Assembly (NCBI GenBank): GCA_963770415.1
Contig: CAVYPU010000005.1
Coordinates: 1,596 to 65,595, forward strand
Length of the DNA: 64,000 bases
Direction: 5' to 3'
Source: an uncultured Acidobacteriota bacterium
Lineage (GTDB): Bacteria; Acidobacteriota; Terriglobia; UBA7540
In this document: piece after piece, positions 3,800 through 64,000 of the stretch
Layout: every line of letters starts with the position of its first letter
How positions within the stretch are numbered: position 1 is the first letter of the stretch
Program-made: the position numbers and the translations under genes
The notes under the pieces: model-generated
Told to the model about the DNA's origin: nothing
Databases searched by the model: none
Seen by the model: the letters and a program-made list of their open reading frames with translations, nothing else

Positions 3800-3826
3800 T
3801 TGCCTTTAGGTCTCCCCCCTGGCCCT

Positions 3827-5065: not shown

Positions 5066-5143
5066 GACCACCAGAGTTGCTCCTTGTATATTTGCGCAAG
5101 AAACGCATCGGTTCGTAGTGAAGGTCTGCACCTTTTATGCGTT

Positions 5144-6211: not shown

Positions 6212-6227
6212 GTTTCGTCCGCTCCTG

Positions 6228-8547: not shown

Positions 8548-8601
8548 AGGGTGTGCTCCTCTTCCCGCTCTCCGATCTGCCGGCATCAAGGTCAAGCAAA
8601 G

Positions 8602-12698: not shown

Positions 12699-13772
12699 TC
12701 ATGCGGGCTGTTGCTGCGTCAGGCAATGGAGCGTGCCGAAACCCAGCACCAGATCAACGGCATGGACGCCCACTACGATACGATCCTTGAATAATTCGCC
12801 AAGGAGTCCAAGCGCCAAGCGGTCTTTGGGATCGTTGAAAGTGGGCACCAGCACAGCATGATTGGCGATATAGAAATTTGCATAACTCGCCGGGAGCCTG
12901 TCGCCGTCGAAAAAGATCGGGTCGGGCATGGGTAGCGCGATGACCTCCGGCTTGGAACCGTCCTCAAGCCGCAGATCCTGAATGCGCTCCCAGTTTTCGT
13001 TCAGCGGGCCATAGTTGACGTCCTTGGTATTCTCCTCTTTAATGAGAACCAGGGTCTTTCTATCGACGAAACGGCAGATGTCATCGATGTGGCCGTGCGT
13101 ATCATCCCCGGTCACGCCACCGGCAAGCCAGAAGACATTTGTCGCACCGAGGTAATCGTGGAGCGCTTTTTCAAAGCCTTTTCGGTCCAGGCCAGGATTC
13201 CTGACCTGGATTTCCGGGTGCAAATAGCACTCTTCCGTCGTCAACAATGTTCCGCGCCCGTTGACTTCGATTCCACCCCCTTCGAGGACGAATTCACGGT
13301 TGCCGATCTGCGCGTCGAAGAGGCGCTTGCGAGAGGTGTCTGGCCGCAACTTCAGGCACCTGGCGATCTTTCTTCCAGTCGGAATACTTGGCCCAGGCAT
13401 TGAAATGGAAATGGACGATGGCGGTCTCCGTCCTTCTGTTCCGGTGGCGCCGGACAAATATGGGCCCGCTGTCCCGCATCCAGCCGCGATTGGTTGGGTG
13501 CCGGATGAACTCGACGCGCGTCGGGTCAGCTCCTGCGCGCTCAGGTAGCGCCGCGCGGTCTTCTCGCCGGCCGCGGAATTGACCAGCATCCTGATGCGCT
13601 CACCGGGCGAAATTTTGCGCACGATTTCGCCGTAGACCCAGCAAATCGTATCGAGCTTGTCCGGCCAGTCGGTGGGATTGTGAGGCCACGCGAGCCACGT
13701 GGCTTCGTGCGGCTCCCACTCCGCAGGCATCGAGAAGCCCATTGAAAACGGCGTGTTTTTAGAATCTTTCAT
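12699..13772 (-). pseudogene. aguA: agmatine deiminase (PAD_porph family) with two compensating frameshifts
   Basis: Motifs 'FSMPAEWEPHEATWLAWPHNPTDW', 'EGGGIEVNGRGTLLTTEEC', 'GDDTHGHIDD' and the C-terminal 'GTLHCLTQQ'. The conserved middle 'GADPTRVEFIRHPTNRGWMRDSGPIFV...AIVHFHFNAWAKYSDWKKD' is readable only in the frame of ORF 13294..13479. The frame changes are at about 13528-13544 and 13297-13330. I placed the start at ATG 13772 ('MKDSKNTPF'). Confidence 0.8.
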
Positions 13773-13887
13773 TCCGTTCCCCTCGTGCGACAGGACTCCC
13801 CCCTCACCCTCATTCCCTCCCCGTCTTAGGGTGTCGCCACGTATGCGAAACCCACCGTCAGAAGCCAAGAACGATGTATAATAACTC

Positions 13888-14181
13888 ATGCCAAAGAATG
13901 TGATCCACATCTCGGAGGCGGACGCGGCGAGTGATTTTGCCCGGCTGCTGAAACGCGTGCGCACGGGCACGGAGGTTATTATCGAAAGCGGTAAGCGGCC
14001 TGTGGCTGTCATCCATGCTGCCGAGCCGGCACGCCGCACCATCTCCGAATCCATTGCATTGGCCAAGGCGCATGCGAAAGAACTGGGTTTCGAGCCAACC
14101 ATGGACACCGATTTTGCCGCCGACGTTCAGGAAATCATTAACGGCCGCCGCAATCCTTGGAACCCGCCCCCATGGGATTGA
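13888..14181 (+). CDS. type II antitoxin, Phd/YefM-like
   Basis: 97-aa ORF 'MPKNVIHISEADAASDFARLLKRVRTGTEVIIESGKRPVAVI', a Phd/YefM-type N-terminus. Its stop overlaps the downstream PIN toxin start by 10 nt. Confidence 0.8.
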   Translation: MPKNVIHISEADAASDFARLLKRVRTGTEVIIESGKRPVAVIHAAEPARRTISESIALAKAHAKELGFEPTMDTDFAADVQEIINGRRNPWNPPPWD

Positions 14182-14585: not shown

Positions 14586-14651
14586 GGCAGCACGCTTTCC
14601 CCGCTCCACCTCGCTGTGTTAGTCTAATGGACTCAATCCCTGATTTCAATG

Positions 14652-14712
14652 CGTCGTCCCCGCGGAAGCGGGGACCCACGTACGGTGGATTCCCGCATTC
14701 GCGGGAATGACG
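14652..14712. repeat. REP doublet: two ~28-nt hairpin cores in inverted orientation
   Basis: Hairpin gtccccgc-GGAA-gcggggac at 14656-14675 and hairpin attcccgc-ATTC-gcgggaat at 14689-14708. The core resembles CGTCAYYCCCGCGAAAGCGGGRATCCA, which recurs at 35650-35708, 53241-53305 and 60345-60420. Confidence 0.85.
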
Positions 14713-14765
14713 TGATTTTCGAGAGAGCGGCGCTCATTGTGTTCAAGGAAGGATTCGATTCGACC

Positions 14766-16025
14766 ATGGCTAAAGAGCAAAAGTCACATCATCGTTATCG
14801 TGAAGACATGTCGGAGATGCCCGAGTGGATGAAAAAGAAGAAGTGCCCCGACCGCGAGCGCTACCTCGCCGGACAGCGGATTCTCCCCAAGAATCTGACC
14901 GGCAAAGAGAAGCTTGCTGATATCGTGGACGAGGTGTTTCTTGCTTACAACTCGGCCCGTCTGAAAGAGGGTTGCAAGCTTTTCGTGGAAAAGATGCTCG
15001 AGCCGGACGTAACGATCGGCATGACCCTATCCGGAGCGCTTACGCCGGCCGGCCTCGGGTGCTCCTCGATCGTTCCGCTTATCAAAGCCGGATTTGTGGA
15101 CTGGATTGTCTCGACCGGCGCCAATCTGTATCACGACATGCATTTTGCCTTGAACTATCCTGTGCGTGCGGGAAATTTCAACATGGACGACACGGAACTG
15201 CGCGATAACGATATCGTGCGCGTGTACGACGTCCTGCTCGGCTACAGCGATTGCCTGATGGCCACGGATGAATTCCTGCGCAACATGCTGATTCAACCCG
15301 AATTCCAGAAGGAGATGGGCACCGCTGAACTGCACCATTTGCTGGGCAAGTATGCCGCCGAGTGGGAGCGCAAAGCGGGCCTCAAGGACGTCTCAGTGCT
15401 GGCCGCCGCCTATCGCGCCGGCGTGCCCTGCTACACCTCATCGCCCGGCGACTCAACGATTGGAATGAACGTGGCCGGCGTGGAATTGCGCGGCAACAAG
15501 CTGCGGGTGAATCCTTCGATCGACGTGAATGAGACCACCGCTTACGTTCTCGCGGCGAAACGCTCAGGAGGCAAGAGTGGCGTGGTTCTATGGGGCGGCG
15601 GCAGCCCCAAGAATTTCATGCTCCAGACGGAACCCCAGATCCAGGAGGTGCTGCGCATCAAGGAATTTGGGCAGGATTATTTCTTCCAGGTAACCGATGC
15701 GCGTCCGGACACGGGCGGACTGAGCGGAGCCACCCCCAGCGAAGCCGTAAGCTGGGGGAAAGTGGATCCCGACCGCCTGCCCGATGCGGTGGTTTGCTAC
15801 ACGGATACGACCATCGCCATGCCGATCCTCACGCACTATGCGCTCGCCAGGCACCCCCGGCGGAAATTGCGCAGGCTTTACGACCAGCGCGGCAAAATGA
15901 TGAAGGCGCTGACCAAGGAATACTTCACCCACAACAAAGTGAAAATGATCGACGGCACGGATCCTGAAATTGAGCCGACAGCCCTCTCCCCTCGGGAGAG
16001 GGCTGTCTGTCCAGGAAAAATGTAG
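14766..16025 (+). CDS. deoxyhypusine synthase (DHS) family protein, bacterial homologue
   Basis: Motifs '[12 protein letters not shown]...[23 protein letters not shown]', 'WGGGSPKNF' and '[13 protein letters not shown]', which matches the region that carries the catalytic lysine in eukaryotic DHS. ATG 14766 is preceded by AAGGAAGGA. The upstream part of ORF 14649.. is translated REP sequence. Confidence 0.85.
15977..16007. repeat. perfect 13-bp-stem hairpin inside the 3' end of the DHS-homologue CDS
   Basis: gacagccctctcc-cctcg-ggagagggctgtc. It encodes '..[10 protein letters not shown]..' and lies 16 nt before the stop codon. It is of the same 'ccctctcc/ggagaggg' type as the intergenic palindromes. 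Confidence 0.85.
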
Positions 16026-47952: not shown

Positions 47953-50900
47953 ATGCGCTTGAGATACAAGTTCGGTCTGGGGATAGCTCTCTTCTTGATG
48001 TTTGGGACGCTGGCGGCGTGGGCCAGCATTACGGGCAGCATTTCCGGGGTGGTTGCGGACCCCAGCGGGGCCGTAGTTCCCGGAGTGACAGTGACCGCGG
48101 TGGACACGAACACCGGGGTGAAGCAGACTGTAGTCACGGACCAAAAAGGCTTCTACGAATTTCCGGCTCTGGCCATTGGCACCTACGAATTGGACATTCA
48201 GCAGACCGGGTTCAGGCCTTATCGCCAGACCGGCTTGGTGATCGACGCCAACTCCGCCCTGGTTGCGGACGTTAAGCTGACCTTGGGCACCTCGCAACAG
48301 GAAGTTACGGTTTCGACCACGGCCGCCCATGTGGAGACCAGCAGTACGCAAATGGGCGAGGTGATCGAAGACAAGAAGATCGAATCGGTGCCGCTCAACG
48401 GGCGCAGCTACACGGATTTGCTGGCGCTTCAGCCCGGCGTCTCGCCTTACTCGAACGTGGCTGTGGGAAGCGACCGGCCTACCTCCGGCGACATCTCGAA
48501 CTCCGGCAATGAAGCCATGAACGGCCAGCGTGAAACTTCCAACGGCTTCATGGTGAATGGCGCGAACGTCGAAGAAGGGCGAAACAACGGCGCGGCCATC
48601 ATTCCCAACCTTGACTCCATCGCGGAGTTCCGTATTCTTACCAATAACTTCGACGCCGAGTACGGTAACTACAGCGGCGGCCAAGTGAACGTGGTGACCA
48701 AGTCCGGCGCCAACACAATTCATGGCGACGCCTTTGATTTCGTTCGCAACACCAAATTTGACGCGCGGAATTTCTATTCCTACGACCAGACGAATGCCAC
48801 GACAGGGGCCGATATTCCCGGAACGGCCATTGGAACCTTCCAGCAGAATCAGTTTGGAGCCACCTTCGGTGGACCTATCAAGCGCAATAAGGCGTTCTTC
48901 TTCGTCGACTACCAGGGAACCCGCATGGTTCAAGGCCAATCGACGGGGCTGATTCCCGTCCCTTCGCCGGCGGAGCGGAATGGAGATTTCTCGGCTAACA
49001 CAGACGCTTTGACGGGATCGGTGGTTGGTCCTAATTGGGCCAGCGCACTCACGAATCAACTCGGCTACCCGGTTCAAGCCAGTGAGGCCTATTACACTCC
49101 GGGATGCACCACGACGGCGCAGTGCGTGTTCCCCAACGCGTACATACCGCCAACCTCCTGGGCGTCCCCAACACCGAACTTACTGCCTTATATCAAGTCG
49201 CCCAATATCATCACACCAGCGGGCGACTACTTCACAACGTCTGCAATCGACGAGCGCTTGCGGGACGATAAAGGTGGTGTTCGCGTTGACGGGAATTCCC
49301 GTTTCGGCATGCTCTCCGCCTACTATTTCATGGACGACTACCTGCTGAACAACCCCTATCATAACGCGCCCGAATTTCCCGGCTTCAACGCCATAACACC
49401 CGGCCGGGCCCAATTGCTCAACCTTTCGGATACGAAGAGCTTCGGTTCCGCGTCTGTGAACCAATTCCACTTCAGTTACATGCGCGATGCCAATATCTTT
49501 AACGAGCCCTCCGGCGGCCTGGGGCCCTCAATGACTTCTCTGGGTTTCAACGGGACCTTCAACGCCCAGGGAGGCATCGGCTCGGTGGTTCCTGCGGATG
49601 CGGGCGTCCCCCTGATGCAATTCAATAGCTACAATTTCGGGCTACCGGACGGTTCCACGGGGCAATACAACAACACCTACCAATTTCTGGATAACTTCGC
49701 CCATATTATTGGGACACACAGCTTGAAATTCGGGGCCGAGTTCCATTACGCCGAGATCAACGAGCGCAACACCTACGCGGAGAATGGCGTCTTCGCTTTC
49801 AACGGCAGCGAAACCGGCATCGATTTTGCCGATTTTCTGATCGGCGCTCCCGGTCAACTAATCCAGTCCAGCCGGCAGTTTCTCGACTCGCGCACCAAGT
49901 ACATCAGCGGGTTCGTGCAGGATAGCTGGCGCGCCAAGCCCAGCCTGACGCTCAACTACGGCTTGCGCTGGGAAGTCAGCCAGCCCTGGTACGACACGCA
50001 GGGCAAGACCGAGACCATTATTCCGGGCGTGCAGTCCGTAGTCTTCCCCGGCGCGCCCAAAGGTTGGCTGGTTCCGGGTGATCCGGGCGTGCCTTCCACC
50101 CTTGCACCTACCAAGTTATGACGGAATTGCTCCCCGAGTGGGAATCGCATATTCGCCCAAGTGGGACAGCGGTTTGCTTGGCAAGCTGTCAGGCGGTCCC
50201 GGTAGGACCAGTTTCCGAGCGGGCTGGGGACTCTTCTATACCTCGGTCGAAGACTTGACCCAGTTCGTGGAAGTCGGCGACTCTCCGTACGGCCTGTTTT
50301 ATGTCAGCCCCTCTCCACCCGAGTTCGCGACTCCTTACATCGATCGGGCGACCGGGCACAATGAAGGGCAGCGATTCCCCTTCCACTTCCCGCCCACCAA
50401 TTCATCGGCCAAGAACCCCGATACCACCTTCAATTGGCAGGCGGTGGAGCCGATCTCCGGCGCGCCGGTGTTCTTCCACACCAACCGCATGCCCTACGCC
50501 GAGGATTATGAAGCGTCGTTGCAGCGTCAATTCGGAGCTAATACGACACTGGGTATCAGCTTCGTTGGAACGCAGGGACACGATTTGATCTCCTTCCTCG
50601 AGTCCAACCCCGGCGACCAGTCCCTATGCCTGTCGCTCAACGCCGCTACGCTTGCGCCCGGACAGACGCCCTGCGGCCCGTTCCTCGAAAGCAATACTTA
50701 TGTGACCAACTCCGGACAGACCGTCCTTGGAACTCGTCCCATCCTGGGCAATCTCTTTATCAGCAATGCCTACATGGATGAGATGGCGAACTCCAACTAC
50801 AACTCGCTTCAGGTGAACCTGCGCCACACGAGCAAGAATTCCTCGTTCCTTATCGGCTACACGTACGCCAAGTGCATGGATAACGCCTCCGCCCTTGAAC

Positions 50901-51493
50901 AGGCGGTCAATCCCCTGAACTACAAGGCGAGCAAGGCGCTCTGCTCTTTTGACGTCACGAACGATTTTGTAGCCAGTTACAGCGTCCGGCCCTTCGATAG
51001 CTTGTCTTTCGCCAATGGCAGGGTTGGGAAATATGCCATTAAGGGCTGGGAACTTTCCGGCATCACCACTTTCGCCGCCGGACTGCCCGTGGGGCTCTCC
51101 GAGAATGACGACCGCTCCTTGCTTGGAACCAGCGGCGTCGACGAACCGGAGCGCGCACCCGGCAAGATCCTCAGTAACACCAACCCGCGCAACGGCCAGG
51201 AATACTTCAATACTTCGCTGTTCAGCGCCGAGCTTTTGGGCTTTGTCGGCGATTCCGGCCGGAACTTCTTCCACGGCCCCGGCATCAACAACTTCGATCT
51301 GGCCCTGTTGAAGAACTTCAACATCACCGAGTCCAAAACACTCGAGTACCGGTGCGAGTTTTTCAACGCCTTCAACCACGCTCAGTTCAATAACCCGAAC
51401 GGGAATTTCACCGCCGGTCCCGGCGCCTTCGGCTATGTTACCAGCGCCCGAGATCCTCGCATCGTTCAGATGGCGCTGAAATTTATCTTCTAA
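47953..51493 (+). pseudogene. TonB-dependent receptor with CarboxypepD_reg domain; one frameshift
   Basis: 'SITGSISGVVADPSGAVVPGVTVTAVDTNTGVKQTVVTDQKGFYEFPALAIGTYELDIQQTGF', plug 'VPLNGRSY', C-terminus 'QMALKFIF'. ORFs 47953..50121 and 50078..51493 join at '..STLAPT|SYDGIAPRVGIAYSP', at about 50100-50115. Confidence 0.85.
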
Positions 51494-53332: not shown

Positions 53333-54691
53333 CTATATTTCAGAAAAATCCATCTTGGGAGGCTGGGCGCGAAAGCCGCGAGTGCGGATGGCGGCGTAGA
53401 CGATACCGGCTGCGAACCAGATTCCGCCTGCCCATCGCGCGGGCGTGGGCAAGCTCCACCAGATCCCGGCGCAGAACAAGAACGCGAAGCCGGGCGCGAC
53501 GAGGTCAGTCAAAAGGTTGCGGCGCCGGCCGGTCTGCGGGCGCAGGCAGAACTGTCGAATGCAGGTGATGTTGACTCCCATGAAAGCCAGGAAAGCGCCG
53601 AAGTTGAGCATCTCCGCCGAGCGTTCGTAGCTTATGAGCAGCGAGCCCGCGAGCGTTAGCAAGCCGATCAGGATTACGTTAAAGGCGGGAATGTTGCGCT
53701 TCGCATCCAGGCGCGCGAAAAACTTTCGCGGCAGCACGTCGTCGCGCCCCATCCCGTAAAGCAAGCGCGCCGCCCCGGCGATTCCGGCCAGACCCGTACC
53801 GAAGCAGGCCACGATCAGGATCACGGACAGCGCCTGAAAGAGCGCCATCCCTCCCACCCGGGCGCACACATCCAGAAAAGCTGTTTCGATATTACTAAAA
53901 CTGCTATAATCAGGCCATACAAGGTGCCCCAGGTAGACTTCCAGAACGCTGAGCAATCCACAGATGACGCAGACCAGGACCGTGGCGATGGGAACCGTGC
54001 GTTTGGGATTCTCCACCTCTTCGGCGAGGGTCGTCACGCCGTCGAAGCCGATGTAAGTCAGCGCGGCGAGCGAAGTCGCGGTGCGCAGGGCGCCAAAGTC
54101 GAAGGTCTTCGGGTTGTAGAAGGGTGCGGTCGAAACCATCCCTCCGATTCCATGCAGGTGAAGCAGGTAGCGGACCGCCGCGTATACAAAGGCCACCACC
54201 ACCACCGATTCCACGAACAGTAGAATCTCGTTGGCGCGCATCGTGAAGCGGATGCCGACCAGGTTCAGGAAGATGATGATGCCCACAATCAGCACCACCC
54301 AGAGGGCGTAAGGCACTTGCGGAAAGAGGCGCTTGAAGGTCAGAGCGGGATAGATGACGTTGATGATGGGGATGAGCAAGTAGTCGAGCACCATCGCCCA
54401 ACCGATCAGCGAACCGACGTAGCTGTTCAGGCCGCGGCCGACGTAGGTGTAAGCGGAACCGGCGGAAGGATAAATGCCGGCCATGCGTCCATAGCTGACG
54501 GCCGTGAGCACCATGGCCGCCATCGCCACGAGAATCGCGGTTGAGATGTGGCCGCGCGAGAGCCTCTGGCCGATACCGAAGATGCCGATGGGGGCAATGG
54601 GCTGGATCAGGATGATCCCGTAGAAAACCAGGTCCCAAAGTTTCAAGACACGGCGCAGTTGGGGCGGATTAGCGACAGCGGTGGTTGCCAT
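53333..54691 (-). CDS. APC-superfamily amino acid/polyamine permease, PuuP-like
   Basis: 'LRRVLKLWDLVFYGIILIQPIAPIGIFG...AVSYGRMAGIYPSAGSAYTYVGRGLNSYVGSLIGWAMVLDYLLIP...ARLLYGMGRDDVLPRKFF' tracks the E. coli putrescine importer PuuP as I recall it. Confidence 0.8.
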   Translation of the reverse strand: MATTAVANPPQLRRVLKLWDLVFYGIILIQPIAPIGIFGIGQRLSRGHISTAILVAMAAMVLTAVSYGRMAGIYPSAGSAYTYVGRGLNSYVGSLIGWAMVLDYLLIPIINVIYPALTFKRLFPQVPYALWVVLIVGIIIFLNLVGIRFTMRANEILLFVESVVVVAFVYAAVRYLLHLHGIGGMVSTAPFYNPKTFDFGALRTATSLAALTYIGFDGVTTLAEEVENPKRTVPIATVLVCVICGLLSVLEVYLGHLVWPDYSSFSNIETAFLDVCARVGGMALFQALSVILIVACFGTGLAGIAGAARLLYGMGRDDVLPRKFFARLDAKRNIPAFNVILIGLLTLAGSLLISYERSAEMLNFGAFLAFMGVNITCIRQFCLRPQTGRRRNLLTDLVAPGFAFLFCAGIWWSLPTPARWAGGIWFAAGIVYAAIRTRGFRAQPPKMDFSEI

Positions 54692-54741: not shown

Positions 54742-54820
54742 GACCCCCTCACCCGTCCCACACCGGCTGATGAAAGCGCCGGTGCGGGGCACCCTCACCC
54801 CCCAAGGGGGAGAGGGCCAG
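54742..54820 (+). repeat. ~78-nt intercistronic palindromic element, copy A
   Basis: gaccccctcacccgtccca-caccggc-tgatgaaagc-gccggtg-cggggcaccctcaccccccaagggggagagggccag. Copies in the same orientation lie at 57556-57633 and 60503-60580. Confidence 0.85.
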
Positions 54821-54860
54821 CTTCCCGACGGGGGGCGGGACTTGCGGCGCGATACCAAGC

Positions 54861-56201
54861 TTACGACAACTGCTCGAGCGGGGTGAGGTCGAGTCCTTCG
54901 AGTTCGGGGTCGTAGTATTGGTCCGAGGCCAGCAGCTCATCCCAGGTGACTTCGCGGCCGGTATAAGCCGCCATGCGTCCCAGGAGCGCGCTCAGCGTGG
55001 ACTCCGCGCCCTGCGCCGCCTGGTTGTGGTACTTGCCGGTGAGGATGCTGTCGATGAAGGCCTTGGTCTTCTCGTTGTCCGCCTCATCGAGCGCGCCGTG
55101 GAAGGTGCCCGCGTTCTGCTCTTCCGTGCCGCCGCGTCCGATGGCGTAGAAGTTGGTGCTGGGAGAGATCTTGCCATCCCCCCCGCCTTCCCACTTCCAA
55201 GGCTCTTCGCCATAGATGCCCACCACGCCCGAGTAGTGCGACTCGGAAACGCCGCGCGAGCCGAAGAAGCGCTCCGCCACGTCCCACAGCCAAGTGCCCC
55301 ACTGCACGTGGTTCAGGCTGACGCGCACGTTATTCGGGTAAGTGAAGATAACATCGAAGTGGTCCCAGGTGTTGCCCCAATCTTCGCGCACCTTGCGCCC
55401 ACCCGTGCCGATAGCCTTGAGGGGGTGATCCTTGAGCACCCAGTTGCAGATGTCGATCACGTGCAGGCTCTGGTCCACGATGATGTCGCCGGAAAGGACT
55501 CGGTCCCAGTAGAAGTTGCGCACCCGCAGCTCGAGCGGGCTCGCGTCCGGCCGGCGGGGCGGATAGGTAAGCGTCGTAGCGTGGTAATACACCGAGGCCT
55601 GAGCGATCTTGCCGATGGCCCCGTCGTGAATGCGTTTCACCATCTCAACATAGGGCGGGGCGTAGCGAATCTGGAAGCCGATTTCGAGACTCATGCGGCC
55701 TTCGGCCTTCTTACCCAGTTCCTTGATCTTTTTCGCGCTGCGCACATCCACCCCGGTGGGCTTCTCGCAATAGCAATGCTTGCCCGCGGCGACGACCGCC
55801 TCGAGATGGATTGGGTGGAAGAAGTCCGGCGTGGCGATGTGGATTACGTCGAACTGGTTTGACTCCGCCATGGCCTGGTAAGCCTTCGGCCCTCTGAACA
55901 TGAGCTTGGGGTCGATGGCCGGGTGGCCTTTGGCGGCATTGATGGAGTCGAATTGCTGCTTGGCTTTATCAAGCTGGTCGCTGAAGAGGTCGCCCAGCCC
56001 CACGTAACAGGCCTTAGGGTGCCTGGAAAGGGCCGTCGCTACACCCTTGCCGCGCCCTCCGCAACCGAGCAAGCCCACACGCAGCGACGAGTTTATGGCT
56101 GTGCCCCGCACATGTTGCGGTTTGATGATCATGAATCCCGCCGCAGCCGCTGCCGTGCCGATGAAATCCCTGCGTCCAACTTTCTTTGGATCTTCGCTCA
56201 T
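54861..56201 (-). CDS. Tat-signal (periplasmic) Gfo/Idh/MocA oxidoreductase
   Basis: 'KKVGRRDFIGTAAAAAGFMII' (twin-arginine motif), 'LRVGLLGCGGRGKGV' (Rossmann) and 'HCYCEKP'. Confidence 0.88.
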   Translation of the reverse strand: MSEDPKKVGRRDFIGTAAAAAGFMIIKPQHVRGTAINSSLRVGLLGCGGRGKGVATALSRHPKACYVGLGDLFSDQLDKAKQQFDSINAAKGHPAIDPKLMFRGPKAYQAMAESNQFDVIHIATPDFFHPIHLEAVVAAGKHCYCEKPTGVDVRSAKKIKELGKKAEGRMSLEIGFQIRYAPPYVEMVKRIHDGAIGKIAQASVYYHATTLTYPPRRPDASPLELRVRNFYWDRVLSGDIIVDQSLHVIDICNWVLKDHPLKAIGTGGRKVREDWGNTWDHFDVIFTYPNNVRVSLNHVQWGTWLWDVAERFFGSRGVSESHYSGVVGIYGEEPWKWEGGGDGKISPSTNFYAIGRGGTEEQNAGTFHGALDEADNEKTKAFIDSILTGKYHNQAAQGAESTLSALLGRMAAYTGREVTWDELLASDQYYDPELEGLDLTPLEQLS

Positions 56202-56470: not shown

Positions 56471-57511
56471 TCAAATCCTCACGGTGCGCGAAGTCCTCGC
56501 CGATTCGTAGCAGGCCTCGAGAATCCGCTGGTTGCGCAGGCCCTCGGCGCAGTCGAGCTTCGATTTCCTGCCCTCGAGTATTGCCTGGCTGAATTCCTCG
56601 ATCTCGGCGCGGTAAGTGTTGACCGGGGCCGGCTTGAGCGCAATCCCCTGGCCCGCGTCGCGGGCCTGTTGGGCTTCGTATCCCTTGCCCTGCGGGCGCG
56701 GATAGAACACCATCTCCCCTTGGCTCCCCTGGCCGACAGTCCCTTTGGCAAGAATACTGCCGTCCGACCCGTACAGCTCGAGGACGTTCTGGCTGCTCTC
56801 GTCCGGTATGCAGAAGAACGTGTCGACGGTCCCTAGCGCCCCGTTTTGAAACACCAGCATGGCAAGGGCGCTATCTTCCGAGCGGTAAGGGTGCACCAGG
56901 TTGCCGATGCAGCAACTGACCGAGGCCACGGGACCAAAGAACATCTCGAGCAGGTCGATGCAATGGACTCCCATGTCCGCGAGCGAACCGCCACCGCCTT
57001 GGCTCGGGTCCTGCCGCCAAGCGCCTTCGATCGGCGGATACCAGCAGGAAAGCTGCGCCCGGCCGAAGACGGGCTTTCCCAGTTTTCCTGACTGGACGAT
57101 CTTGAGCGCTTCCTGGTGCTGCGACTGAAAGCGCATCATGAACGCCGCGCCGAGCTGTACCTTCGAGCGCTCGGCGAGCGCCGCCATTTCCTTCCCCTCC
57201 GCGACGCTCGAGGCCAGGGGCTTCTCGCAAAGCACGTGCTTACCCGCTTTGAGGCATTGCGCCGTGTGCTCGCTGTGCAGATTAACCGGCGTGGCGATGT
57301 AGACGGCATCGATCTCCGCCGCCAGCAACTCTTCCAGGCTCTTGAACGCCTGCGTCCCAAACGTGCGTGCGGCCTCCGCGTTGCCTTCCTGATTGCAGTC
57401 GTACAAACCCACCAGCTTGGCATTCGCAGCCGGAACGATTCCTTCTGGAATGGTGCGCCGGCGCGCAATTCCGCACGAACCTACAACTCCCCAAGCGACT
57501 TTGTCTTTCAT
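56471..57511 (-). CDS. Gfo/Idh/MocA family oxidoreductase (cytoplasmic)
   Basis: Motifs 'VAWGVVGSCGIARRRTIP' and 'HVLCEKPLASSVAEGKEM'. Confidence 0.88.
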   Translation of the reverse strand: MKDKVAWGVVGSCGIARRRTIPEGIVPAANAKLVGLYDCNQEGNAEAARTFGTQAFKSLEELLAAEIDAVYIATPVNLHSEHTAQCLKAGKHVLCEKPLASSVAEGKEMAALAERSKVQLGAAFMMRFQSQHQEALKIVQSGKLGKPVFGRAQLSCWYPPIEGAWRQDPSQGGGGSLADMGVHCIDLLEMFFGPVASVSCCIGNLVHPYRSEDSALAMLVFQNGALGTVDTFFCIPDESSQNVLELYGSDGSILAKGTVGQGSQGEMVFYPRPQGKGYEAQQARDAGQGIALKPAPVNTYRAEIEEFSQAILEGRKSKLDCAEGLRNQRILEACYESARTSRTVRI

Positions 57512-57555: not shown

Positions 57556-57633
57556 GACCCCCTCACCCGGTCCGTACCGGCTGATGAAAGCGCCTGCGCG
57601 GGTCAGCCTCTCCCCCAAGGGGGCGAGGGCTGG
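57556..57633 (+). repeat. ~78-nt intercistronic palindromic element, copy B
   Basis: gaccccctcacccggtccgtaccggctgatgaaagcgcctgcgcgggtcagcctctcccccaagggggcgagggctgg. Confidence 0.85.
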
Positions 57634-57674
57634 TATGTGGACGGGCGGGTACGTCTTGCACAAATCTAATGCGA

Positions 57675-57818: not shown

Positions 57819-59096
57819 TTATCCCTTCTTTGAATACGCCTTGATCACTTTCACTATTGCATGCGCGATCTGCTTCGTGTCTTCTTCCGAGAAGGTGGGG
57901 AAGGGGAACACCGTGAACGTGTGCGTCTCGTGCCAGAGCGCATTCGGGACCTTGACCTGCGAGTAGTCCACGCTTGCGGGGTTGGCGTATTCCTTGGAGC
58001 GGAAGGGGAATCCCGACCGGCCGAAGGAGTTGAACTCGCGGAAGGCGCGCTCGGTGTGGCATTGCGGCCAGAACACTTTCCAGCACGGTGCGCCCTCTGC
58101 GCCCGCCGCTTCGACGAATTGCTGAATCGTACAATTCATGTTCTCGATATCGAGCGAGAACGCCATGGTGTACCAGCCGTTCTGGCGCTCCGGCGTATCG
58201 ATGGGGCCATACTTGATCTCCGGCCTCGCGCACAGCGCCTCCATTATGATGTGGGCGTTCCTGCGGCGCGCCGGCATGTTCCAGTTGTCAATGCGATCGA
58301 GTTCTGCAAGCCCGATCGCCGACTGCATTTCCGTCATGCGGTAGTTCCATCCCACCATGTTGTGGATGTAGGGGAGTTTCTGCTCGAGCTCCATAAGCGC
58401 CAGGCGCTCCTTCACGTCGTAGCCGTGGTCGCGGAAGCTGCGCGCGCGCCACGCCAGGTCCTCGTCGTCAGTCGTGACCATTCCGCCTTCGCCGCCGGTC
58501 GTGAACGTCTTGTTCTGGCAGAAACTGCAGGCCGACATTTCTCCCATGGTGCCTGTCTTCTTGCCTTTGTACTTCCCGCCAAAGGCTTCCGCGTTGTCTT
58601 CGATCAGGAAAAGGTTGTGGCGCTTGGCAAAGGCCAGCAGCTTGTCCATGTCGCACACGTTGCCATATAGGTGCACGGGTATGATGGCTTTGGTACGCTC
58701 GTTCACCAGCTTCTCAGCCGATTCAACGCTGATGCAGTGGTCCTCGATGTTCACGTCCGCGAAGCGCGGGATCGCGCCCGCCTGCACCACGGAGAAACTG
58801 GTGGCGATGAACGTGTAGCTCGGGACGATCACCTCGTCGCCCGGGCCAATGCCCAAGGCGGTCAGGGCCACATGCAGCGCCGCCGTGCCCGTCGCCACGC
58901 TGATGGCGTACTTGCTGCCTTGCCATTCCGCAAACTTGCTCTCGAATTCCATGCCGCGCTTTCCGGTCCAGTAGTTGACCTTCCCGGACCTCAGCACGTC
59001 CGTGACGGCTGCGATTGCCTTCTCGTCGAAGTGCGGCCAGCCTTGCAATTTGTTTGTTACCGCCTTCGGGCCACCTTCGATGGCTAGTCTTTCCAT
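57819..59096 (-). CDS. DegT/DnrJ/EryC1/StrS-family PLP aminotransferase (second copy)
   Basis: 'MERLAIEGGPKAV', 'ATGTAALHVALTALGIGPGDEVIVPSYTFIATSFSV', 'IIPVHLYGNVCDMD' and 'CSFCQNKTFTTGGEGG'. GAGGAGG lies upstream of ATG 59096. Confidence 0.9.
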   Translation of the reverse strand: MERLAIEGGPKAVTNKLQGWPHFDEKAIAAVTDVLRSGKVNYWTGKRGMEFESKFAEWQGSKYAISVATGTAALHVALTALGIGPGDEVIVPSYTFIATSFSVVQAGAIPRFADVNIEDHCISVESAEKLVNERTKAIIPVHLYGNVCDMDKLLAFAKRHNLFLIEDNAEAFGGKYKGKKTGTMGEMSACSFCQNKTFTTGGEGGMVTTDDEDLAWRARSFRDHGYDVKERLALMELEQKLPYIHNMVGWNYRMTEMQSAIGLAELDRIDNWNMPARRRNAHIIMEALCARPEIKYGPIDTPERQNGWYTMAFSLDIENMNCTIQQFVEAAGAEGAPCWKVFWPQCHTERAFREFNSFGRSGFPFRSKEYANPASVDYSQVKVPNALWHETHTFTVFPFPTFSEEDTKQIAHAIVKVIKAYSKKG

Positions 59097-59215
59097 TTCA
59101 AATCCTCCTCTTGTAAGTTCAGTATCAACCAAGTACAGTATCGCCCCCCAAAAGCCACACCTATCAGCCTTGGGGTTCTTATCACCTTTAACGGAAGGAT
59201 GTCAAGGATAGCGGA

Positions 59216-60157
59216 TCACACCTTGGTCGGCGCAACCTTCTTGATCCACTCGCGAGTCCAATCCACCGCCTCGAAGCCCAGGTCGAAGGTGGTTCCGCCG
59301 TACACGCAGATGCCCTCGATGCGGCCGCTGCGCAGCCAACTCAGAGCCTGTTCGCACTGTTTCTGCATGAGCGGAACCGGCATGCCCGTCCACGCCGGAG
59401 TCTTGCCTTCGTTCAGTGCAGTTGTATAGAGGCCCACCATCTTGCGGCACCGGGGGACGAGCTTGTCAAGCTGGGCGATATAAGAATCCACGTTGGCCAA
59501 CTCTTCGGGCTTCCACATCCAAAGCGTGATCACGTCGATCTGCTTCAGATGTTCGGCGATAGGCAGTTTCAACTGGTGGGCGTAGAACGTCAGGTAAATG
59601 TCCATCTTCTTTGTCGGGCCTTTGAGCTGCCGCTGGACGTCGCGTAATTGGTCCACCGAGAGGCTTCCGACCCCTTCGCCGGTTTTGGGTTTGTCATGGA
59701 AGAAGTCGTCCAGGTAGACGCCGACCATGTTGGGAAACTTCTGAAGCATGCTCAGAACTTGCTTTCTTTCCCAATCATGGGTAACGCCGCCGGCGCCCGT
59801 CAGCGACCATGCGACGCGCTTGAGCATCGTGAGCGGCACCATGTACTGCTCGAAGGGCGGCTCGAACGGTTTGTACTGGCCCTCCTCGCCCTTGCCCGGA
59901 TACTGTTGCACCATGAAGATGTTCGGAATCCCCATGTAAACGGCCGCCTCGAATGGCGACATCACCGAGCGCTTGCGGAGAATACCCCAGTCGGCGTTGG
60001 TGGGGTTGCTGAACAGCCACAGCTTGTCGCGGACTGTGCCCTCCTTGGGCGCGGCAAGCTGCCCCCAGGCGGGCAGTGAAAGTCCGCAGCTTGCCGCCGC
60101 GGCAGTTTGGAGGAATTGCCGCCGGTGTATCTTCAAGCCTGATTGATTGCTGTTCAT
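59216..60157 (-). CDS. Tat-signal protein of unassigned family, paralogue 1
   Basis: 'IHRRQFLQTAAAASCGLSLPAWGQ', then 'GTVRDKLWLFSNPTNADWGILRKRSVMSPFEAAVYMGIPN', 'AGGVTHDWERKQV', 'VGVYLDDFFHD', 'MQKQCEQALSWLRSGRIEGICVYGG' and 'WTREWIKKV'. GGAGG lies 9 nt upstream of the ATG. Confidence 0.85.
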   Translation of the reverse strand: MNSNQSGLKIHRRQFLQTAAAASCGLSLPAWGQLAAPKEGTVRDKLWLFSNPTNADWGILRKRSVMSPFEAAVYMGIPNIFMVQQYPGKGEEGQYKPFEPPFEQYMVPLTMLKRVAWSLTGAGGVTHDWERKQVLSMLQKFPNMVGVYLDDFFHDKPKTGEGVGSLSVDQLRDVQRQLKGPTKKMDIYLTFYAHQLKLPIAEHLKQIDVITLWMWKPEELANVDSYIAQLDKLVPRCRKMVGLYTTALNEGKTPAWTGMPVPLMQKQCEQALSWLRSGRIEGICVYGGTTFDLGFEAVDWTREWIKKVAPTKV

Positions 60158-60316
60158 TGAACGTGCCTCCAGGTGATTGAGAGTTTCAGATTAGGATGTT
60201 ACGGACGGCGTTCCTGCGATTCCGTCACTGTCAACGTGAGCGACTATTCCATGAAGGTGTGAAAAAATCAAGCGGTGTCATGCTGGGCGAAGACGCTATA
60301 ATCCCTCTGCTCACCA

Positions 60317-60470
60317 CTGTGCATGAAAAAAGGCTGGATTTTCGCTCCCCCGCTTTCGCGGAGGACAAGTTTCGCGGGAATGACAGACTAGGCGTCAACC
60401 CCGCGAAAGCGGGGGATCCATTGATGATGTCTCGGCCTATTTTTCATAGCAGCGAAGAATCTCTGCAGTT
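60317..60470. repeat. composite REP-bearing element (copy B)
   Basis: The ends ctgtgcatgaaaaaaggc (60317-60334) and ggcctatttttcatagcag (60434-60452) flank REP cores at 60345-60420. The trailing cgaagaatctctgcagtt matches copy A. Confidence 0.75.
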
Positions 60471-60502
60471 CCGATGATTAACGACGTAATTGGTCCGGAT
60501 TG

Positions 60503-60580
60503 GACCCCCTCACCCGTCCCGCGACGGCTGGTGAAAACGCTGTCGCGCGCCACCCTCTCCCCCAAGGGGGAGAGGGCTGG
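60503..60580 (+). repeat. ~78-nt intercistronic palindromic element, copy C
   Basis: gaccccctcacccgtcccgcgacggctggtgaaaacgctgtcgcgcgccaccctctcccccaagggggagagggctgg. The terminal hairpin ccctctccccc/gggggagaggg is perfect. Confidence 0.85.
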
Positions 60581-60606
60581 GATTTCACGCTCGGAGGAGG
60601 GAATGA

Positions 60607-61530
60607 TCAGAGCCTAGTCTCCCCGACTTTTTGAATCCACTCGCGAGCCCACTTGATGGAATCCCAGCCAAAGTCAAAGAAGTTTCCGTAAATAATGATC
60701 CCTTCGATCTTGCCTTGCCGGAGCCATTCGAGACCCACTTCGCACTGATGCTGCATCTTGGCAACTGGGAGTGGCAGCCACTTGGGAGTTCGCTTTCCAT
60801 CGTAGTCGGCGGTATAACACCCGAGGAGGATTCGCGACCCGGGCGCCAATTTCTTCAGGCTGTCAAGATTCTCGTCGAGGTGGTCGATATCAGCGGTCTC
60901 GCCCGTCCAGAAAGTAATCACATCAATCAGCTTCAAGTACTCGGCGACCGGGCGCTTCAACATCTGGGTATAGAACGTGACGTACAGATCAAGCTTCTTG
61001 CTGCCTCCCTTGAGTTCATGCTGAACAGCGCGCAACTCCTCAAGCGACAGACTCGCCACCTTCGCTCCCTCCTCGGTGAAGAAGTCGTCCATAAAGACGC
61101 CAACGAAGTTGGGCGTGCGGCGGGCCATTGCCAGCACTTGCTTCCGCTCCCAGTCCATGGTGACCCCGCCTGCATCCACAATGGACCAGACCACCCGCTT
61201 CTCGACTTGCAAGGGAAAAGCATACAGCTCAAACGGAGGCACCCAGGGCATGTACCATCCATCCTGGCCTGGTTTCAAAGGAGCCCTGCCGTTTCGCTCG
61301 GGATACTGATTGACCATGATCATGTTGGGAACGCCGAGGTAGACTGCGCCCTCGAGAGGCGTAATTACCGACCGCTTGCGCACATACTCATAGTCGCCAT
61401 TCACGGGATTGCAGAACACCCACAACCGGTCGCGGACCGTGCCCGGCTTGGGCGGGATGAGCTGTCCAAAAGCGCACAGTGAGAATCCGCAGCTTGCCGC
61501 CGCAGTTTGGAGAAATTGACGACGGTGCAT
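60607..61530 (-). CDS. Tat-signal protein of unassigned family, paralogue 2
   Basis: 'MHRRQFLQTAAASCGFSLCAFGQ', 'GTVRDRLWVFCNPVNGDYEYVRKRSVITPLEGAVYLGVPN', 'AGGVTMDWERKQV', 'VGVFMDDFFTE', 'MQHQCEVGLEWLRQGKIEGIIIYGN' and 'WAREWIQKV'. The 108 upstream codons of ORF 60607..61854 are translated repeats. Confidence 0.85.
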   Translation of the reverse strand: MHRRQFLQTAAASCGFSLCAFGQLIPPKPGTVRDRLWVFCNPVNGDYEYVRKRSVITPLEGAVYLGVPNMIMVNQYPERNGRAPLKPGQDGWYMPWVPPFELYAFPLQVEKRVVWSIVDAGGVTMDWERKQVLAMARRTPNFVGVFMDDFFTEEGAKVASLSLEELRAVQHELKGGSKKLDLYVTFYTQMLKRPVAEYLKLIDVITFWTGETADIDHLDENLDSLKKLAPGSRILLGCYTADYDGKRTPKWLPLPVAKMQHQCEVGLEWLRQGKIEGIIIYGNFFDFGWDSIKWAREWIQKVGETRL

Positions 61531-61586
61531 CGCTCGTGTCCTGTTACCCAAATTCGTTGCATAAATATCCGGCTGTGAGGATGTCT

Positions 61587-61769
61587 CCGCAGCCCCGTCA
61601 GGGGCGGCAGCATGTAGCCTACGGCGCGAGCCGTGGGTCAGGATGGGCTCCCTCACCCCCGTCCCCTCTCCCGCCGACGCGGGAGAGGGGTGCCGAAGGC
61701 GGGGTGAGGGCTGTCCAACCCAGGGCTTTCGCCCTGGGCCGCATGCTGTCGCCCCTGACGGGGCTGCGG
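61587..61769. repeat. 183-nt foldback element with 28-bp terminal inverted repeats (27/28)
   Basis: The arms are ccgcagccccgtcaggggcggcagcatg (61587-61614) and catgctgtcgcccctgacggggctgcgg (61742-61769). The interior holds the nested hairpins cccctctcccgc-cgac-gcgggagagggg and cccagggc-tttc-gccctggg. Confidence 0.85.
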
Positions 61770-61866
61770 TAACGCTTGACTTAGTCAACGAATTTACGTT
61801 ACAGGACACTTGGCCCGCACGATGGTTTGACATGTCACAAGCCTCCACGTTCAAGAAAATACCGGA

Positions 61867-62820
61867 TCAGAGCTGGGTGTCCCCGACCTTCCGGATCCAC
61901 TCGCGTGCCCAGCGCATGCATTCCCAGTCGAAGTCGAGGAAGTTGCCATAGATGCATATGCCATCGATTCGGCGCTGGAGGAGCCATCGCAAACCCACCT
62001 CACACTGGTGTTGCATGGCGGGAACCGGCAGGGCCGTCCAATGGGGAACTTGCTTGCCGTCAAAGGCGGCAGTATAGCAGGAGAGGATTATTCGGGATTG
62101 GGGAGCGAGTTTCTCGAGCTTGGCCAGGTTCGCTTCCAGATTCGCGAGCTCCGCCGGCTCCCAGGTCGCTATCGAGATCACGTCGCACAGCGCCAGATAC
62201 TCGCCGATGGGCCGATCCAACTGGTTTGTGTAGAGGGTCACGTACAAATCCAGTTTCTTTCCGGGGCCTTTGAGCTGCCGCCGAATGCCGCGAAGTTGAT
62301 CGAGTGTCAGGCTGGCGGGCGCGGGATCCGACTTGTCATGGAAGAAGTCGTCCATGTAGATCCCCACAATATTGGGTTCCTTGAAAGCCATGGCCATGAC
62401 TTCTTTTCTCTCGGAGTCATGGGTGACACCACCCGCGCCCACAATAGACCAAACCACCCGTTTAAGCATTCTCAAGGGGAACGCGTATTGCTCGATAGGC
62501 GATTCCCAGGGCTTATACTCTATCTTCCGGTACATCTCTTCCTCGCCGGCCCCGGGGTATTGGTTGGTCATGATGATGTTCGGCGCACCCATGTATACCG
62601 CGCTTTCGAACGGCGACATCACAGTCCGCCGGCGGACGATATCGTAGTCGGCGTTAATGGGATTGCAGAATACCCACAACCTGTCCCGAACCGTGCCCGG
62701 CTGCACGGGGCATAGTTGGCCGGCGGCGGAATGAGGCAATGCCAAGCCCGCAGAGATGGCTGCTAGGGACTCGAGAAAGCGGCGACGAGAGGCCACGATA
62801 CCGGCTTCCGTCCTTTTCAT
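61867..62820 (-). CDS. Tat-signal protein of unassigned family, paralogue 3
   Basis: 'SRRRFLESLAAISAGLALPHSAAGQ', 'GTVRDRLWVFCNPINADYDIVRRRTVMSPFESAVYMGAPN', 'AGGVTHDSERKEV', 'VGIYMDDFFHD', 'MQHQCEVGLRWLLQRRIDGICIYGN' and 'WAREWIRKV'. Confidence 0.85.
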   Translation of the reverse strand: MKRTEAGIVASRRRFLESLAAISAGLALPHSAAGQLCPVQPGTVRDRLWVFCNPINADYDIVRRRTVMSPFESAVYMGAPNIIMTNQYPGAGEEEMYRKIEYKPWESPIEQYAFPLRMLKRVVWSIVGAGGVTHDSERKEVMAMAFKEPNIVGIYMDDFFHDKSDPAPASLTLDQLRGIRRQLKGPGKKLDLYVTLYTNQLDRPIGEYLALCDVISIATWEPAELANLEANLAKLEKLAPQSRIILSCYTAAFDGKQVPHWTALPVPAMQHQCEVGLRWLLQRRIDGICIYGNFLDFDWECMRWAREWIRKVGDTQL

Positions 62821-62871: not shown

Positions 62872-64000
62872 CTAAAAGTGAAGCTTCACGGCGACCTGTC
62901 CGATGCGCGGGCTATTGGCCGAGGTGATATCGCCAAAGTTGCCCGCCGTGATGTTGCCCACGGGCGTCGTGAACTGAGCGTGGTTGAACACGTTAAAGAA
63001 CTCCGCCCGAAAATCAAGGGACGTATGCTCGGTGATGCGGACGTTTTTGAAAAGCGACATATCCCAGTTGTTCAGGCCGGGGCCATGAAAGAAGCGGCGA
63101 TTCGCGGTGCCCTGCTGGCCGAGCGCCTCGGAGGTAAAGGGGTCCGTCGAAAACTGTTGGAAGCCATTCGAGTTCCGCGGGTTGAAATGCTGGATCGGCT
63201 GGTTGTTATAGTCGGGGAAATCCACCGCGGAGTTGCCCAGGATCTCGCAACCACAGAGTGAATTGTCATCCGTCTCGGAGAGCGAAACCGGGACACCGGT
63301 GGTAAAGCGAGTGACGCCTGCGATCTCCCAGCCCGAGAGCGCTCTGAATAAAATGCCGTTTTTGCTGTGCGTGAGGTGGTGGAACGGCAAATCATAAGAG
63401 TAGCTGAACACAAAGTTGTGCGTCATGTCGAAGACCGAAAGCGATTTGCTGAGCCTGTAGTTGAACGGGTTGATCAGGTCCAGAAATTGCGAGGCGTCGT
63501 CGAGTGCTTTCGAATAGGTGTAGGCGCCGAGGAGACGGAACGCTCCCACTTGCTTGTTGACGGAAAGTTGCAGGGCGTTGTAGTTCGAGTTGCCCATGGT
63601 CGCTTCCCAGGTGCTATCCAGGAAGTCCAGCAACCCTTGGCTGAGGTAGCGCCCCGAAGTGACCGAGTAGGGGCGCGTGCCATTGAAGGTTTGCCCGCCG
63701 ATCGAGTAAATGCCGTCTTCGCCGCCTGGGCCGCATCCCTGGCCCGCCAGCCCTGCGGCATTGTACAGGCTGGCGATTTGAAGGCATTCCGCCGCGTTGG
63801 CGGGGTTGTAATCCACCTCGGAGAAGAGGTGGTGGCCGCGCGTCCCCACATACCCGATGGTGAAAACCGTCGATTTGGCAAGTTCCCGTTGAATGGTGAT
63901 GTTGAAGTCCTCCGAGTAGGGAGTGACATTGGTGGTTTGATAACCCACGCCATTGATGGGCAGGAACGAGGCGAAACTCACATCGGGCGACAAGGGTGGA
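62872..64000 (-). CDS. TonB-dependent receptor, C-terminal barrel portion (5' end beyond the window)
   Basis: The barrel tail 'FFHGPGLNNWDMSLFKNVRITEHTSLDFRAEFFNVFNHAQFTTPVGN...IGQVAVKLHF' parallels the C-termini of the other two TBDRs. The frame is open to the window edge. Confidence 0.85.
   Translation of the reverse strand, partial: PPLSPDVSFASFLPINGVGYQTTNVTPYSEDFNITIQRELAKSTVFTIGYVGTRGHHLFSEVDYNPANAAECLQIASLYNAAGLAGQGCGPGGEDGIYSIGGQTFNGTRPYSVTSGRYLSQGLLDFLDSTWEATMGNSNYNALQLSVNKQVGAFRLLGAYTYSKALDDASQFLDLINPFNYRLSKSLSVFDMTHNFVFSYSYDLPFHHLTHSKNGILFRALSGWEIAGVTRFTTGVPVSLSETDDNSLCGCEILGNSAVDFPDYNNQPIQHFNPRNSNGFQQFSTDPFTSEALGQQGTANRRFFHGPGLNNWDMSLFKNVRITEHTSLDFRAEFFNVFNHAQFTTPVGNITAGNFGDITSANSPRIGQVAVKLHF

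Follow-up and report, generated by a model that had tools for sequence, protein, structure and literature searches.

Three consecutive minus-strand genes in a 64,000-nucleotide stretch of DNA from an uncultured soil Acidobacteriota bacterium (contig CAVYPU010000005.1; the whole stretch is called the window below) encode paralogous members of a protein family that has escaped annotation. Our tentative interpretation, which is nevertheless the most likely of those weighed here, is that the three proteins, designated paralogues A, B, and C, are enzymes with a (beta/alpha)8 barrel fold, exported to the periplasm by the twin-arginine translocation (Tat) pathway, and that their family is a new glycoside-cleaving group of carbohydrate-active enzymes (CAZymes). 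Each of the alternative explanations finds partial support, yet fits the conservation pattern or the distribution of the family less well than a glycan-cleaving role.

Three paralogous genes of an unannotated family

Paralogue A (59216..60157; 313 amino acids, aa) and paralogue C (61867..62820; 317 aa) open with ATG. Paralogue B (60607..61530; 307 aa) is read from the ATG at 61530, where the protein begins MHRRQFLQ, with a TTG at 61551 as an alternative start. The mechanically delimited open reading frame (ORF) of paralogue B is longer than this protein (60607-61854, minus strand), but the extension upstream of the start crosses a palindromic repeat element and is not coding. According to the ORF listing all three genes are intact, and the proteins align end to end with pairwise identities of 55-59% and 124 invariant columns in the three-way alignment, where B and C are each 55% identical to A, in agreement with an initial annotation made from the nucleotide letters, which had described three homologous tandem genes of these lengths. 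Every motif block quoted there was recovered, namely GTVRD(K/R)LW.., AGGVT.D.ERK.V, VG.(Y/F)(L/M)DDFF, LKG..KK.D.Y.T.Y, MQ.QCE..L.WL...(R/K)I(E/D)GI..YG, and W.REWI.KV. The DDFF block is encoded at 59699-59710 in A (D150-D151-F-F), 61078-61089 in B, and 62341-62352 in C.

All three proteins begin with a leader in which RR-x-F-L (RRQFLQ in A and B, RRRFLE in C) is followed by an Ala-rich h-region and a predicted cleavage site, A-x-G|Q, reading ..HRRQFLQTAAA...AWG|Q in A, MHRRQFLQTAAA...AFG|Q in B, and SRRRFLESLAA...AAG|Q in C, and the twin-arginine motif is kept in 97 close homologues. The Tat-type leaders reported earlier are therefore present on every copy, although the hidden Markov models for Tat signals score them below their cut-offs (13.3-16.5 bits against 22.7 for Pfam TAT_signal; 13.8 against 16.7 for TIGR01409 in the NCBIfam scan), so that Tat export of A, B, and C is a well-supported prediction from sequence rather than a formal database match. 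A lipoprotein identity was rejected, the leader of paralogue C having no Cys. Among homologues with a classifiable N-terminus, twin-arginine leaders occur in most close relatives and in 27 representatives; in about 14 representatives the leader lacks this motif and is in several cases of a Sec- or lipoprotein-like kind, and 17 have no leader, their sequence opening straight at the barrel, and would be cytoplasmic. Because the family includes Tat, Sec, lipoprotein-type, and leaderless members, an obligatory cofactor loaded in the cytoplasm is unlikely.

Pfam and NCBIfam scans of A, B, and C and of 59 diverse relatives (E<=0.1 for the relatives in Pfam) returned nothing except the sub-threshold Tat signal, and searches of PDB sequences with profiles of 43 and 59 sequences produced chance matches only (E 0.5-2). 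The description of the family as unassigned consequently holds, and the recommended check by profile search, carried out against Pfam, NCBIfam, and PDB, yielded no confident match to a characterized family. A word-indexed search of 5.8 billion proteins retrieved 177 relatives, most of them from metagenome-assembled genomes (MAGs) of Terriglobia, all named "hypothetical protein" or "Tat signal domain-containing protein" and none with a Pfam domain. An exhaustive HMMER profile search of 1.84 billion representatives at 50% identity found 740 clusters at E<=1e-3 (493 at E<=1e-10), and the family is therefore real, sizeable, and far beyond chance. No informative protein name appeared among the cluster members or in a second homologue search, and literature searches on the gene combination found no description of the family or the locus.

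Loci were surveyed in one genome per GTDB species using patterns of the close subfamily, so that the 80 loci kept of 121 found, all from MAGs, are biased toward the Acidobacteriota-like subfamily. They represent Acidobacteriota (Terriglobia, Bryobacterales), Planctomycetota, Verrucomicrobiota and Kiritimatiellia, Latescibacterota, Gemmatimonadota, Hydrogenedentota, Armatimonadota, and Lentisphaerota. The homologue survey proposed in the initial annotation was borne out in that relatives occur in Acidobacteriota, Planctomycetota, and Verrucomicrobiota with a conserved pair of aspartates (DD), and with synteny in Acidobacteriota. In a group of Latescibacterota and Gemmatimonadota MAGs (L068-L082), cytoplasmic family members are at least 80% identical across the two phyla and share flanking genes, including one for a BNR/sialidase-like protein immediately downstream; this cross-phylum identity suggests either that the genes were transferred horizontally not long ago or that some of the MAGs were wrongly binned or classified.

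The triplication is old and maintained. Each paralogue has orthologues of its own (best identity 90% for A, 87% for B, and 95% for C), so the copies arose before these lineages separated. The ratios of nonsynonymous to synonymous substitution (dN/dS) in the orthologue pairs are 0.12 for A, 0.09 for B, and 0.21 for C, the last measured against the orthologue in the Terriglobia MAG L007, which indicates that all three copies are kept by purifying selection. The earlier claim of triplication with divergence is supported.

A predicted barrel with a single conserved acidic site

AlphaFold2 models of paralogue A, the copy used for structure modeling, were obtained with 43 aligned sequences (predicted local distance difference test, pLDDT, 86.2; predicted template modeling score, pTM, 0.84) and with 83 (pLDDT 91.8, pTM 0.87). 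Both place eight beta/alpha units behind a disordered leader, the barrel core of paralogue A spanning approximately residues 40-313, and on these models we are confident that the predicted family fold is a (beta/alpha)8 TIM barrel, which had previously been offered as a guess from the sequence pattern. A Foldseek search of the PDB returned exclusively TIM barrels, with template modeling (TM) scores of 0.37-0.52 and identities of 8-14%; all of these matches are weak, and there is thus no close solved relative. The first six matches of the better model are N-acetylhexosaminidases of glycoside hydrolase (GH) family GH20 (E 8e-7 to 1e-5), including GcnA (2epn) and GH20C (5a6k/5ac4). They are followed by methylenetetrahydrofolate reductase (MTHFR), the beta-keto-acid cleavage enzyme Kce, the putative fucosidase BT_0435, and GH29, GH2, GH51, GH99, and GH18 enzymes. 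The best GH20 matches have TM scores of 0.45-0.48 (TMq 0.43-0.48), below a threshold of TM > 0.5 over the catalytic domain, with a root-mean-square deviation of 7-8 Å and an identity of 10-12%. The paralogues share their predicted (beta/alpha)8 barrel with the GH20 and GH84 N-acetylhexosaminidases, GH20 supplying the top matches, but they are much smaller, with a core of approximately 270 aa and no accessory domains, and have no GH match in Pfam.

Several named families were tried and rejected. Neither Glyco_hydro_20, NAGidase, nor Glyco_hydro_18 matched A, B, or C (E<=1) or the 59 relatives (E<=0.1), which argues against membership of GH20, GH84, or GH18. For GH29 there was no Pfam match, and hhalign of the family alignment (A5) against four GH29-like neighbors gave a probability of 0.7%; for the AP_endonuc_2/xylose-isomerase-like group there was likewise no Pfam match, the hhalign probability was 0.5%, and no His or Glu is conserved, in contrast to the Glu/Asp/His/Glu metal ligands of that group. 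Both hhalign results are weak negatives, the neighbor alignments being small and shallow. A class I aldolase was rejected for want of a conserved Lys, and a CE4 deacetylase, despite the "DD" motif, for want of conserved His motifs.

The Foldseek list also raises the possibility of a flavin- or cofactor-dependent redox barrel, MTHFR-like or luciferase-like, that would use the Tat route so as to fold around its cofactor in the cytoplasm: MTHFR, SsuD, and BdsA are among the top matches, and Tat leaders are carried by A, B, and C as well as by the majority of close relatives. The TM scores concerned are just 0.46-0.50, however, with no sequence match, and approximately 14 representatives have leaders without twin-arginine (a Sec-type leader would export an unfolded chain) while 17 have none. 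Together with a genomic context that is carbohydrate-related rather than devoted to C1 or sulfonate metabolism, this makes such an enzyme very improbable, and membership of the MTHFR-like flavin barrels was rejected on the same scores, the missing sequence match, and the existence of Sec-type or leaderless variants.

In an alignment of 83 diverse members, at least 90% conservation was found for W47, N79, W117, N143, D150, D151, Y192, D208, W213, G242, Y244, Q267, and W304, a family-wide set that contains no His, Ser, Cys, Lys, or Glu. By predicted secondary structure, D150-D151 lie directly after strand beta4 (residues 144-149), while strands beta5, beta6, and beta7 terminate in Y192, W213, and Y244, respectively. 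In TIM-barrel enzymes, the C-terminal ends of the strands form the catalytic face and hold the active-site positions. N79, N143, and D208, which open strands, are probably structural. Conserved acidic blocks had been claimed in the initial annotation for both DDFF and ERK; the former is conserved family-wide, but the latter only in the close subfamily, since E130 and R131 are approximately 90% conserved in the 43-sequence alignment and do not belong to the family-wide set. Catalysis is predicted to be centered on Asp150-Asp151 after beta4, flanked by Tyr192, Trp213, and Tyr244. GH20 (D-E) and GH84 (D-D) enzymes have an adjacent acidic pair after strand beta4 and are substrate-assisted retaining glycosidases. 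The DD pair of the present family, with its aromatic strand ends, may correspond to those active sites.

Between the mature paralogues, insertions and deletions are confined to two loops of the catalytic face, beta2-alpha2 and beta4-alpha4, and three-way identity is 35% in these loops versus 48% in the strands, a sequence pattern that would fit diverged specificity of the paralogues. The combination of a single conserved acidic site with many conserved aromatics could be read differently, by analogy with chitinase-like lectins, as that of a non-catalytic carbohydrate-binding barrel that would pass substrate from a transporter to enzymes, and the position of the genes directly after an outer-membrane transporter gene would suit such a role. 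A DD pair strictly conserved at the catalytic end of beta4, across compartments and phyla, is however more typical of catalysis, and cytoplasmic family members adjoin genes for dehydrogenases (Zn-dependent alcohol dehydrogenases), so that we give a purely binding function very little credence.

Longer members of the family provide a further link to glycans. Ten long or extended members were scanned, and four of them, 437-483 aa in length, have an F5/8-type-C (discoidin, CBM32-like) match mid-protein, with scores at or just under the Pfam threshold (28.6 bits against a cut-off of 28.2 in P0146). The family profile aligns to these long members in two parts rather than one, consistent with a discoidin/CBM32-like domain inserted within the barrel. 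CBM32-like modules are typical of glycan-active enzymes.

The locus, its counterparts, and a second locus in the window

The family genes stand in a minus-strand locus whose neighbors are those named in the initial annotation, as Pfam searches established, with an outer-membrane barrel upstream and an aminotransferase and two oxidoreductases downstream. Upstream, the C-terminal part of a TonB-dependent-transporter-like outer-membrane beta-barrel occupies 62872..64000 (OMP_b-brl_4, E=5e-76) and runs past the window end; its full-length syntenic homologue (L002/L012) consists of CarboxypepD_reg and OMP_b-brl_4. Downstream lies a DegT/DnrJ/EryC1 pyridoxal phosphate (PLP)-dependent aminotransferase (57819..59132, minus strand; Pfam E=7e-95), which falls below all NCBIfam equivalog cut-offs and is taken to be cytoplasmic because it has no signal peptide; its nearest PDB entries are uncharacterized DegT proteins, perosamine synthases, and 2-deoxy-scyllo-inosose aminotransferases, with NtdA also among the solved relatives. 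Next come a cytoplasmic Gfo/Idh/MocA oxidoreductase (56471..57511, minus strand; IolG-like, below cut-off) and a second Gfo/Idh/MocA oxidoreductase (54861..56201, minus strand) that is predicted to be periplasmic because of its Tat-type leader, KKVGRRDFIGTAAAAAG, and that stands closest, among proteins of solved structure, to inositol 2-dehydrogenase and the C-glycoside 3-oxidase DgpA. An APC-superfamily permease (AA_permease; 53333..54691, minus strand), missing from the initial annotation, adds an inner-membrane transporter to the set, and AA_permease is the commonest immediate neighbor of family members in Acidobacteriota. Scans for promoters, terminators, and Rfam families over 53-64 kb gave nothing above background.

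The gene set recurs in Acidobacteriota in varying order, comprising the outer-membrane barrel, one to three family genes, the Tat-leader Gfo/Idh/MocA protein, AA_permease, DegT, and the cytoplasmic Gfo/Idh/MocA protein; some sister loci add a Tat-exported AP_endonuc_2 protein, and the Terriglobia MAG L007 has three tandem copies behind the outer-membrane barrel. The suggestion that the genes occupy a position typical of a polysaccharide utilization locus (PUL) therefore stands as regards the recurring gene set but not as regards a canonical SusC/SusD PUL, since neither the genes of this locus nor those of its syntenic counterparts gave a SusD-family match. After loci with family proteins at least 80% identical had been collapsed, 44 groups with 78 immediate neighbors remained. 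These neighbors include AA_permease (5), Laminin_G_3 (5), BNR_2 (2), DegT (2), Gfo/Idh/MocA (2), the outer-membrane barrel (2), GH116 (2), and SASA (1), and are heterogeneous yet carbohydrate-flavored. A Kiritimatiellae operon combines a Tat-leader DegT protein, a family member, a Tat-leader GH29-like protein, a GNAT protein, a Zn-dependent alcohol dehydrogenase (Zn-ADH), a short-chain dehydrogenase/reductase (SDR), and a GDSL esterase, and another family member lies among five GH29 genes, a GH20b-domain protein, and three AXE1 esterases. In the Kiritimatiellae MAG L031, the DegT PLP aminotransferase at 8627-9970, directly upstream of a family member, has a clear Tat leader, ATRRTFIKSAGATATGLL, from which a periplasmic sugar aminotransferase is predicted, an uncommon case within the DegT family.

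The Tat-exported Gfo/Idh/MocA protein suggests a different chemistry for the family. In the periplasmic 3-keto-glycoside pathway documented for Bacteroides thetaiotaomicron BT2156-BT2159 (PMC8121099), a Tat-exported Gfo-like dehydrogenase acts with an IolE-like AP_endonuc_2 protein and a DUF1080 3-keto-disaccharide hydrolase. By analogy, the paralogues might be 3-keto-glycoside lyases, hydratases, or isomerases that act after the Tat-leader Gfo protein in an oxidative, non-hydrolytic cleavage. The window and its sister loci have this Gfo protein, in the latter often accompanied by a Tat-exported AP_endonuc_2 protein, one distant family member is flanked by an AP_endonuc_2 gene on one side and a 3keto-disac_hyd (DUF1080) gene on the other, and DgpA is among the nearest solved relatives of the window protein. 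Unlike the Bacteroides system, however, the window locus has neither AP_endonuc_2 nor DUF1080 but includes DegT and the APC permease, and the A/B/C family is unrelated to AP_endonuc_2, to which it shows no profile similarity and of whose conserved His/Glu metal ligands it has none, and is a barrel rather than a DUF1080 beta-sandwich. Among the neighbors in the 44 dereplicated groups, only 2 of 78 are Gfo/Idh/MocA and at most 1 of 78 is AP_endonuc_2. Genes for Gfo and AP_endonuc_2 proteins are very abundant in these phyla, so their proximity to family genes is likely to arise by chance, and we consider an oxidative role unlikely, although it comes ahead of the other alternatives.

The spacers between the paralogues hold repeats. 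A 274-bp nested inverted-repeat element (61536..61809; inverted repeats I1 and I2), resembling a miniature inverted-repeat transposable element (MITE), fills the spacer between C and B. As RNA it would fold into a single long hairpin (free energy -195 kcal/mol, z=-14.9), and it looks like a MITE-type insertion within the gene array. The spacer between B and A contains an 81-nt palindromic repeat (60503..60583; family D3) similar to repetitive extragenic palindromic (REP) elements, with further copies in the same orientation between other genes of the locus at 57556-57636 and 54742-54822. The copies are 74-81% identical and share a GC-rich palindromic core, CCTCTCCCCCAAGGGGGAGAGG, that had no match in shuffled sequence; a related palindrome lies at 61663-61692.

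A second locus in the window (2108-12201, minus strand) has the same layout as that of the family genes. It consists, all on the minus strand, of a CarboxypepD_reg/OMP_b-brl_4 outer-membrane barrel (8602-12201), a PIG-L/LmbE de-N-acetylase without an obvious signal peptide (7569-8501), a Zn-ADH (6310-7218), a Gfo/Idh/MocA protein (5144-6313), a DegT protein (3827-5131), and a sodium:solute symporter (2108-3799), and it suggests that the genome holds a family of amino-sugar catabolic loci built on DegT and Gfo. The PIG-L protein stands where the family genes stand in the first locus, which encodes no other deacetylase recognizable by Pfam; this favors a role of the paralogues as de-N-acetylases or other C-N hydrolases that expose a free amine for the APC permease and DegT. 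The sugar de-N-acetylases known so far either depend on a metal held by His/Asp ligands or belong to the serine hydrolases. The family, which has no conserved His, Ser, or Cys, matches neither of these types, and the PIG-L protein without evident signal peptide would work in a different compartment, so that we rate this function as highly unlikely.

Beside the second locus are genes for a PAD_porph (agmatine-deiminase-like) protein (12699-14108) and a deoxyhypusine-synthase-like protein (14649-16025), which may belong to polyamine-related metabolism. Elsewhere in the window, two overlapping plus-strand ORFs of 722 and 471 aa (47953-51493) match the first and second halves of OMP_b-brl_4; they are one TonB-dependent-like barrel gene interrupted by a frameshift, which reflects either pseudogenization or a mistake in the sequencing.

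A proposed route for amine-bearing glycans and its significance

Compared with the PULs of Bacteroidota, the window locus likewise combines a TonB-dependent-like outer-membrane barrel, tandem secreted enzymes, cytoplasmic sugar-modifying enzymes, and an inner-membrane transporter, but it has no SusD-like gene, its barrel is of the acidobacterial CarboxypepD_reg + OMP_b-brl_4 type, and its exported enzymes are predicted to use the Tat route. Cytoplasmic pairs of Gfo/Idh/MocA and DegT proteins are also familiar from NtdC/NtdA in kanosamine synthesis and from inositol dehydrogenase with inosose aminotransferase. These pairs are biosynthetic, however, and the window pair reaches no equivalog threshold; its association with uptake genes suggests that it works in the reverse, catabolic direction.

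On the glycan-cleaving interpretation, a glycan or glycoconjugate bearing an amine-carrying sugar or cyclitol would enter through the adjacent TonB-dependent-like outer-membrane barrel and be trimmed in the periplasm by the three diverged paralogues, which would differ in the linkage or decoration on which they act. The Tat-exported Gfo/Idh/MocA protein may assist in this trimming; sister loci also have the Tat-exported AP_endonuc_2 protein. The APC permease would take up the released amino compound, whose C-NH2 the cytoplasmic DegT protein would convert to C=O for reduction to C-OH by the second Gfo/Idh/MocA protein.

Several observations weigh against assigning glycosidase activity to the paralogues. 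Only one acidic site, the DD pair, is conserved family-wide, and a classical two-carboxylate glycosidase mechanism is consequently not evident; the predicted active-site arrangement was read from secondary structure. The structural matches are weak (TM 0.45-0.52), the non-glycosidase barrels MTHFR, Kce, and SsuD score about as well as the GH20 enzymes, and no glycoside hydrolase family could be linked to the paralogues by Pfam, PDB profile, or hhalign searches. Outside Acidobacteriota the immediate neighbors are heterogeneous (5/78 AA_permease, 2/78 DegT, and 2/78 Gfo), and none of the members retrieved comes from a cultured or experimentally studied organism. The analysis establishes the family, its predicted fold, the export signals, the conserved residues, the synteny, and the purifying selection; glycosidase chemistry, an amine-bearing substrate, and a catabolic direction are proposals.

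A bolder version, which we regard as speculative and rather unlikely, would make the family a new glycoside hydrolase family or a class of glycan-cleaving barrels with a single Asp-Asp site. Together with the Tat-leader Gfo protein, the APC permease, DegT, and the second Gfo protein, it would then constitute an undescribed, transamination-based salvage of amino sugars or aminocyclitols from polymers, operating without the usual kinase/deaminase (NagB-type) pathway in uncultured soil Acidobacteriota and in bacteria of the Planctomycetota-Verrucomicrobiota-Chlamydiota (PVC) group.

The fold itself is familiar, and nothing about the family is mechanistically surprising yet; what the window reveals is an unannotated TIM-barrel family in a recognizable type of catabolic locus. 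Encountered here solely in MAG and metagenome sequences, it is a solid candidate CAZyme family that would be new, and it may be part of an amino-sugar salvage route not yet described. Acidobacteriota and the PVC group dominate many soils and peatlands, and much of their carbohydrate-degrading capacity lies in unannotated genes. The present family, conserved and under purifying selection, goes undetected by Pfam and NCBIfam annotation, and assignment of its activity would add an enzyme family to models of carbon and nitrogen cycling and could show by what means a DegT/Gfo route mobilizes organic nitrogen bound up in amino-sugar polymers. A compact, cofactor-free barrel of approximately 270 aa would also have biotechnological interest.

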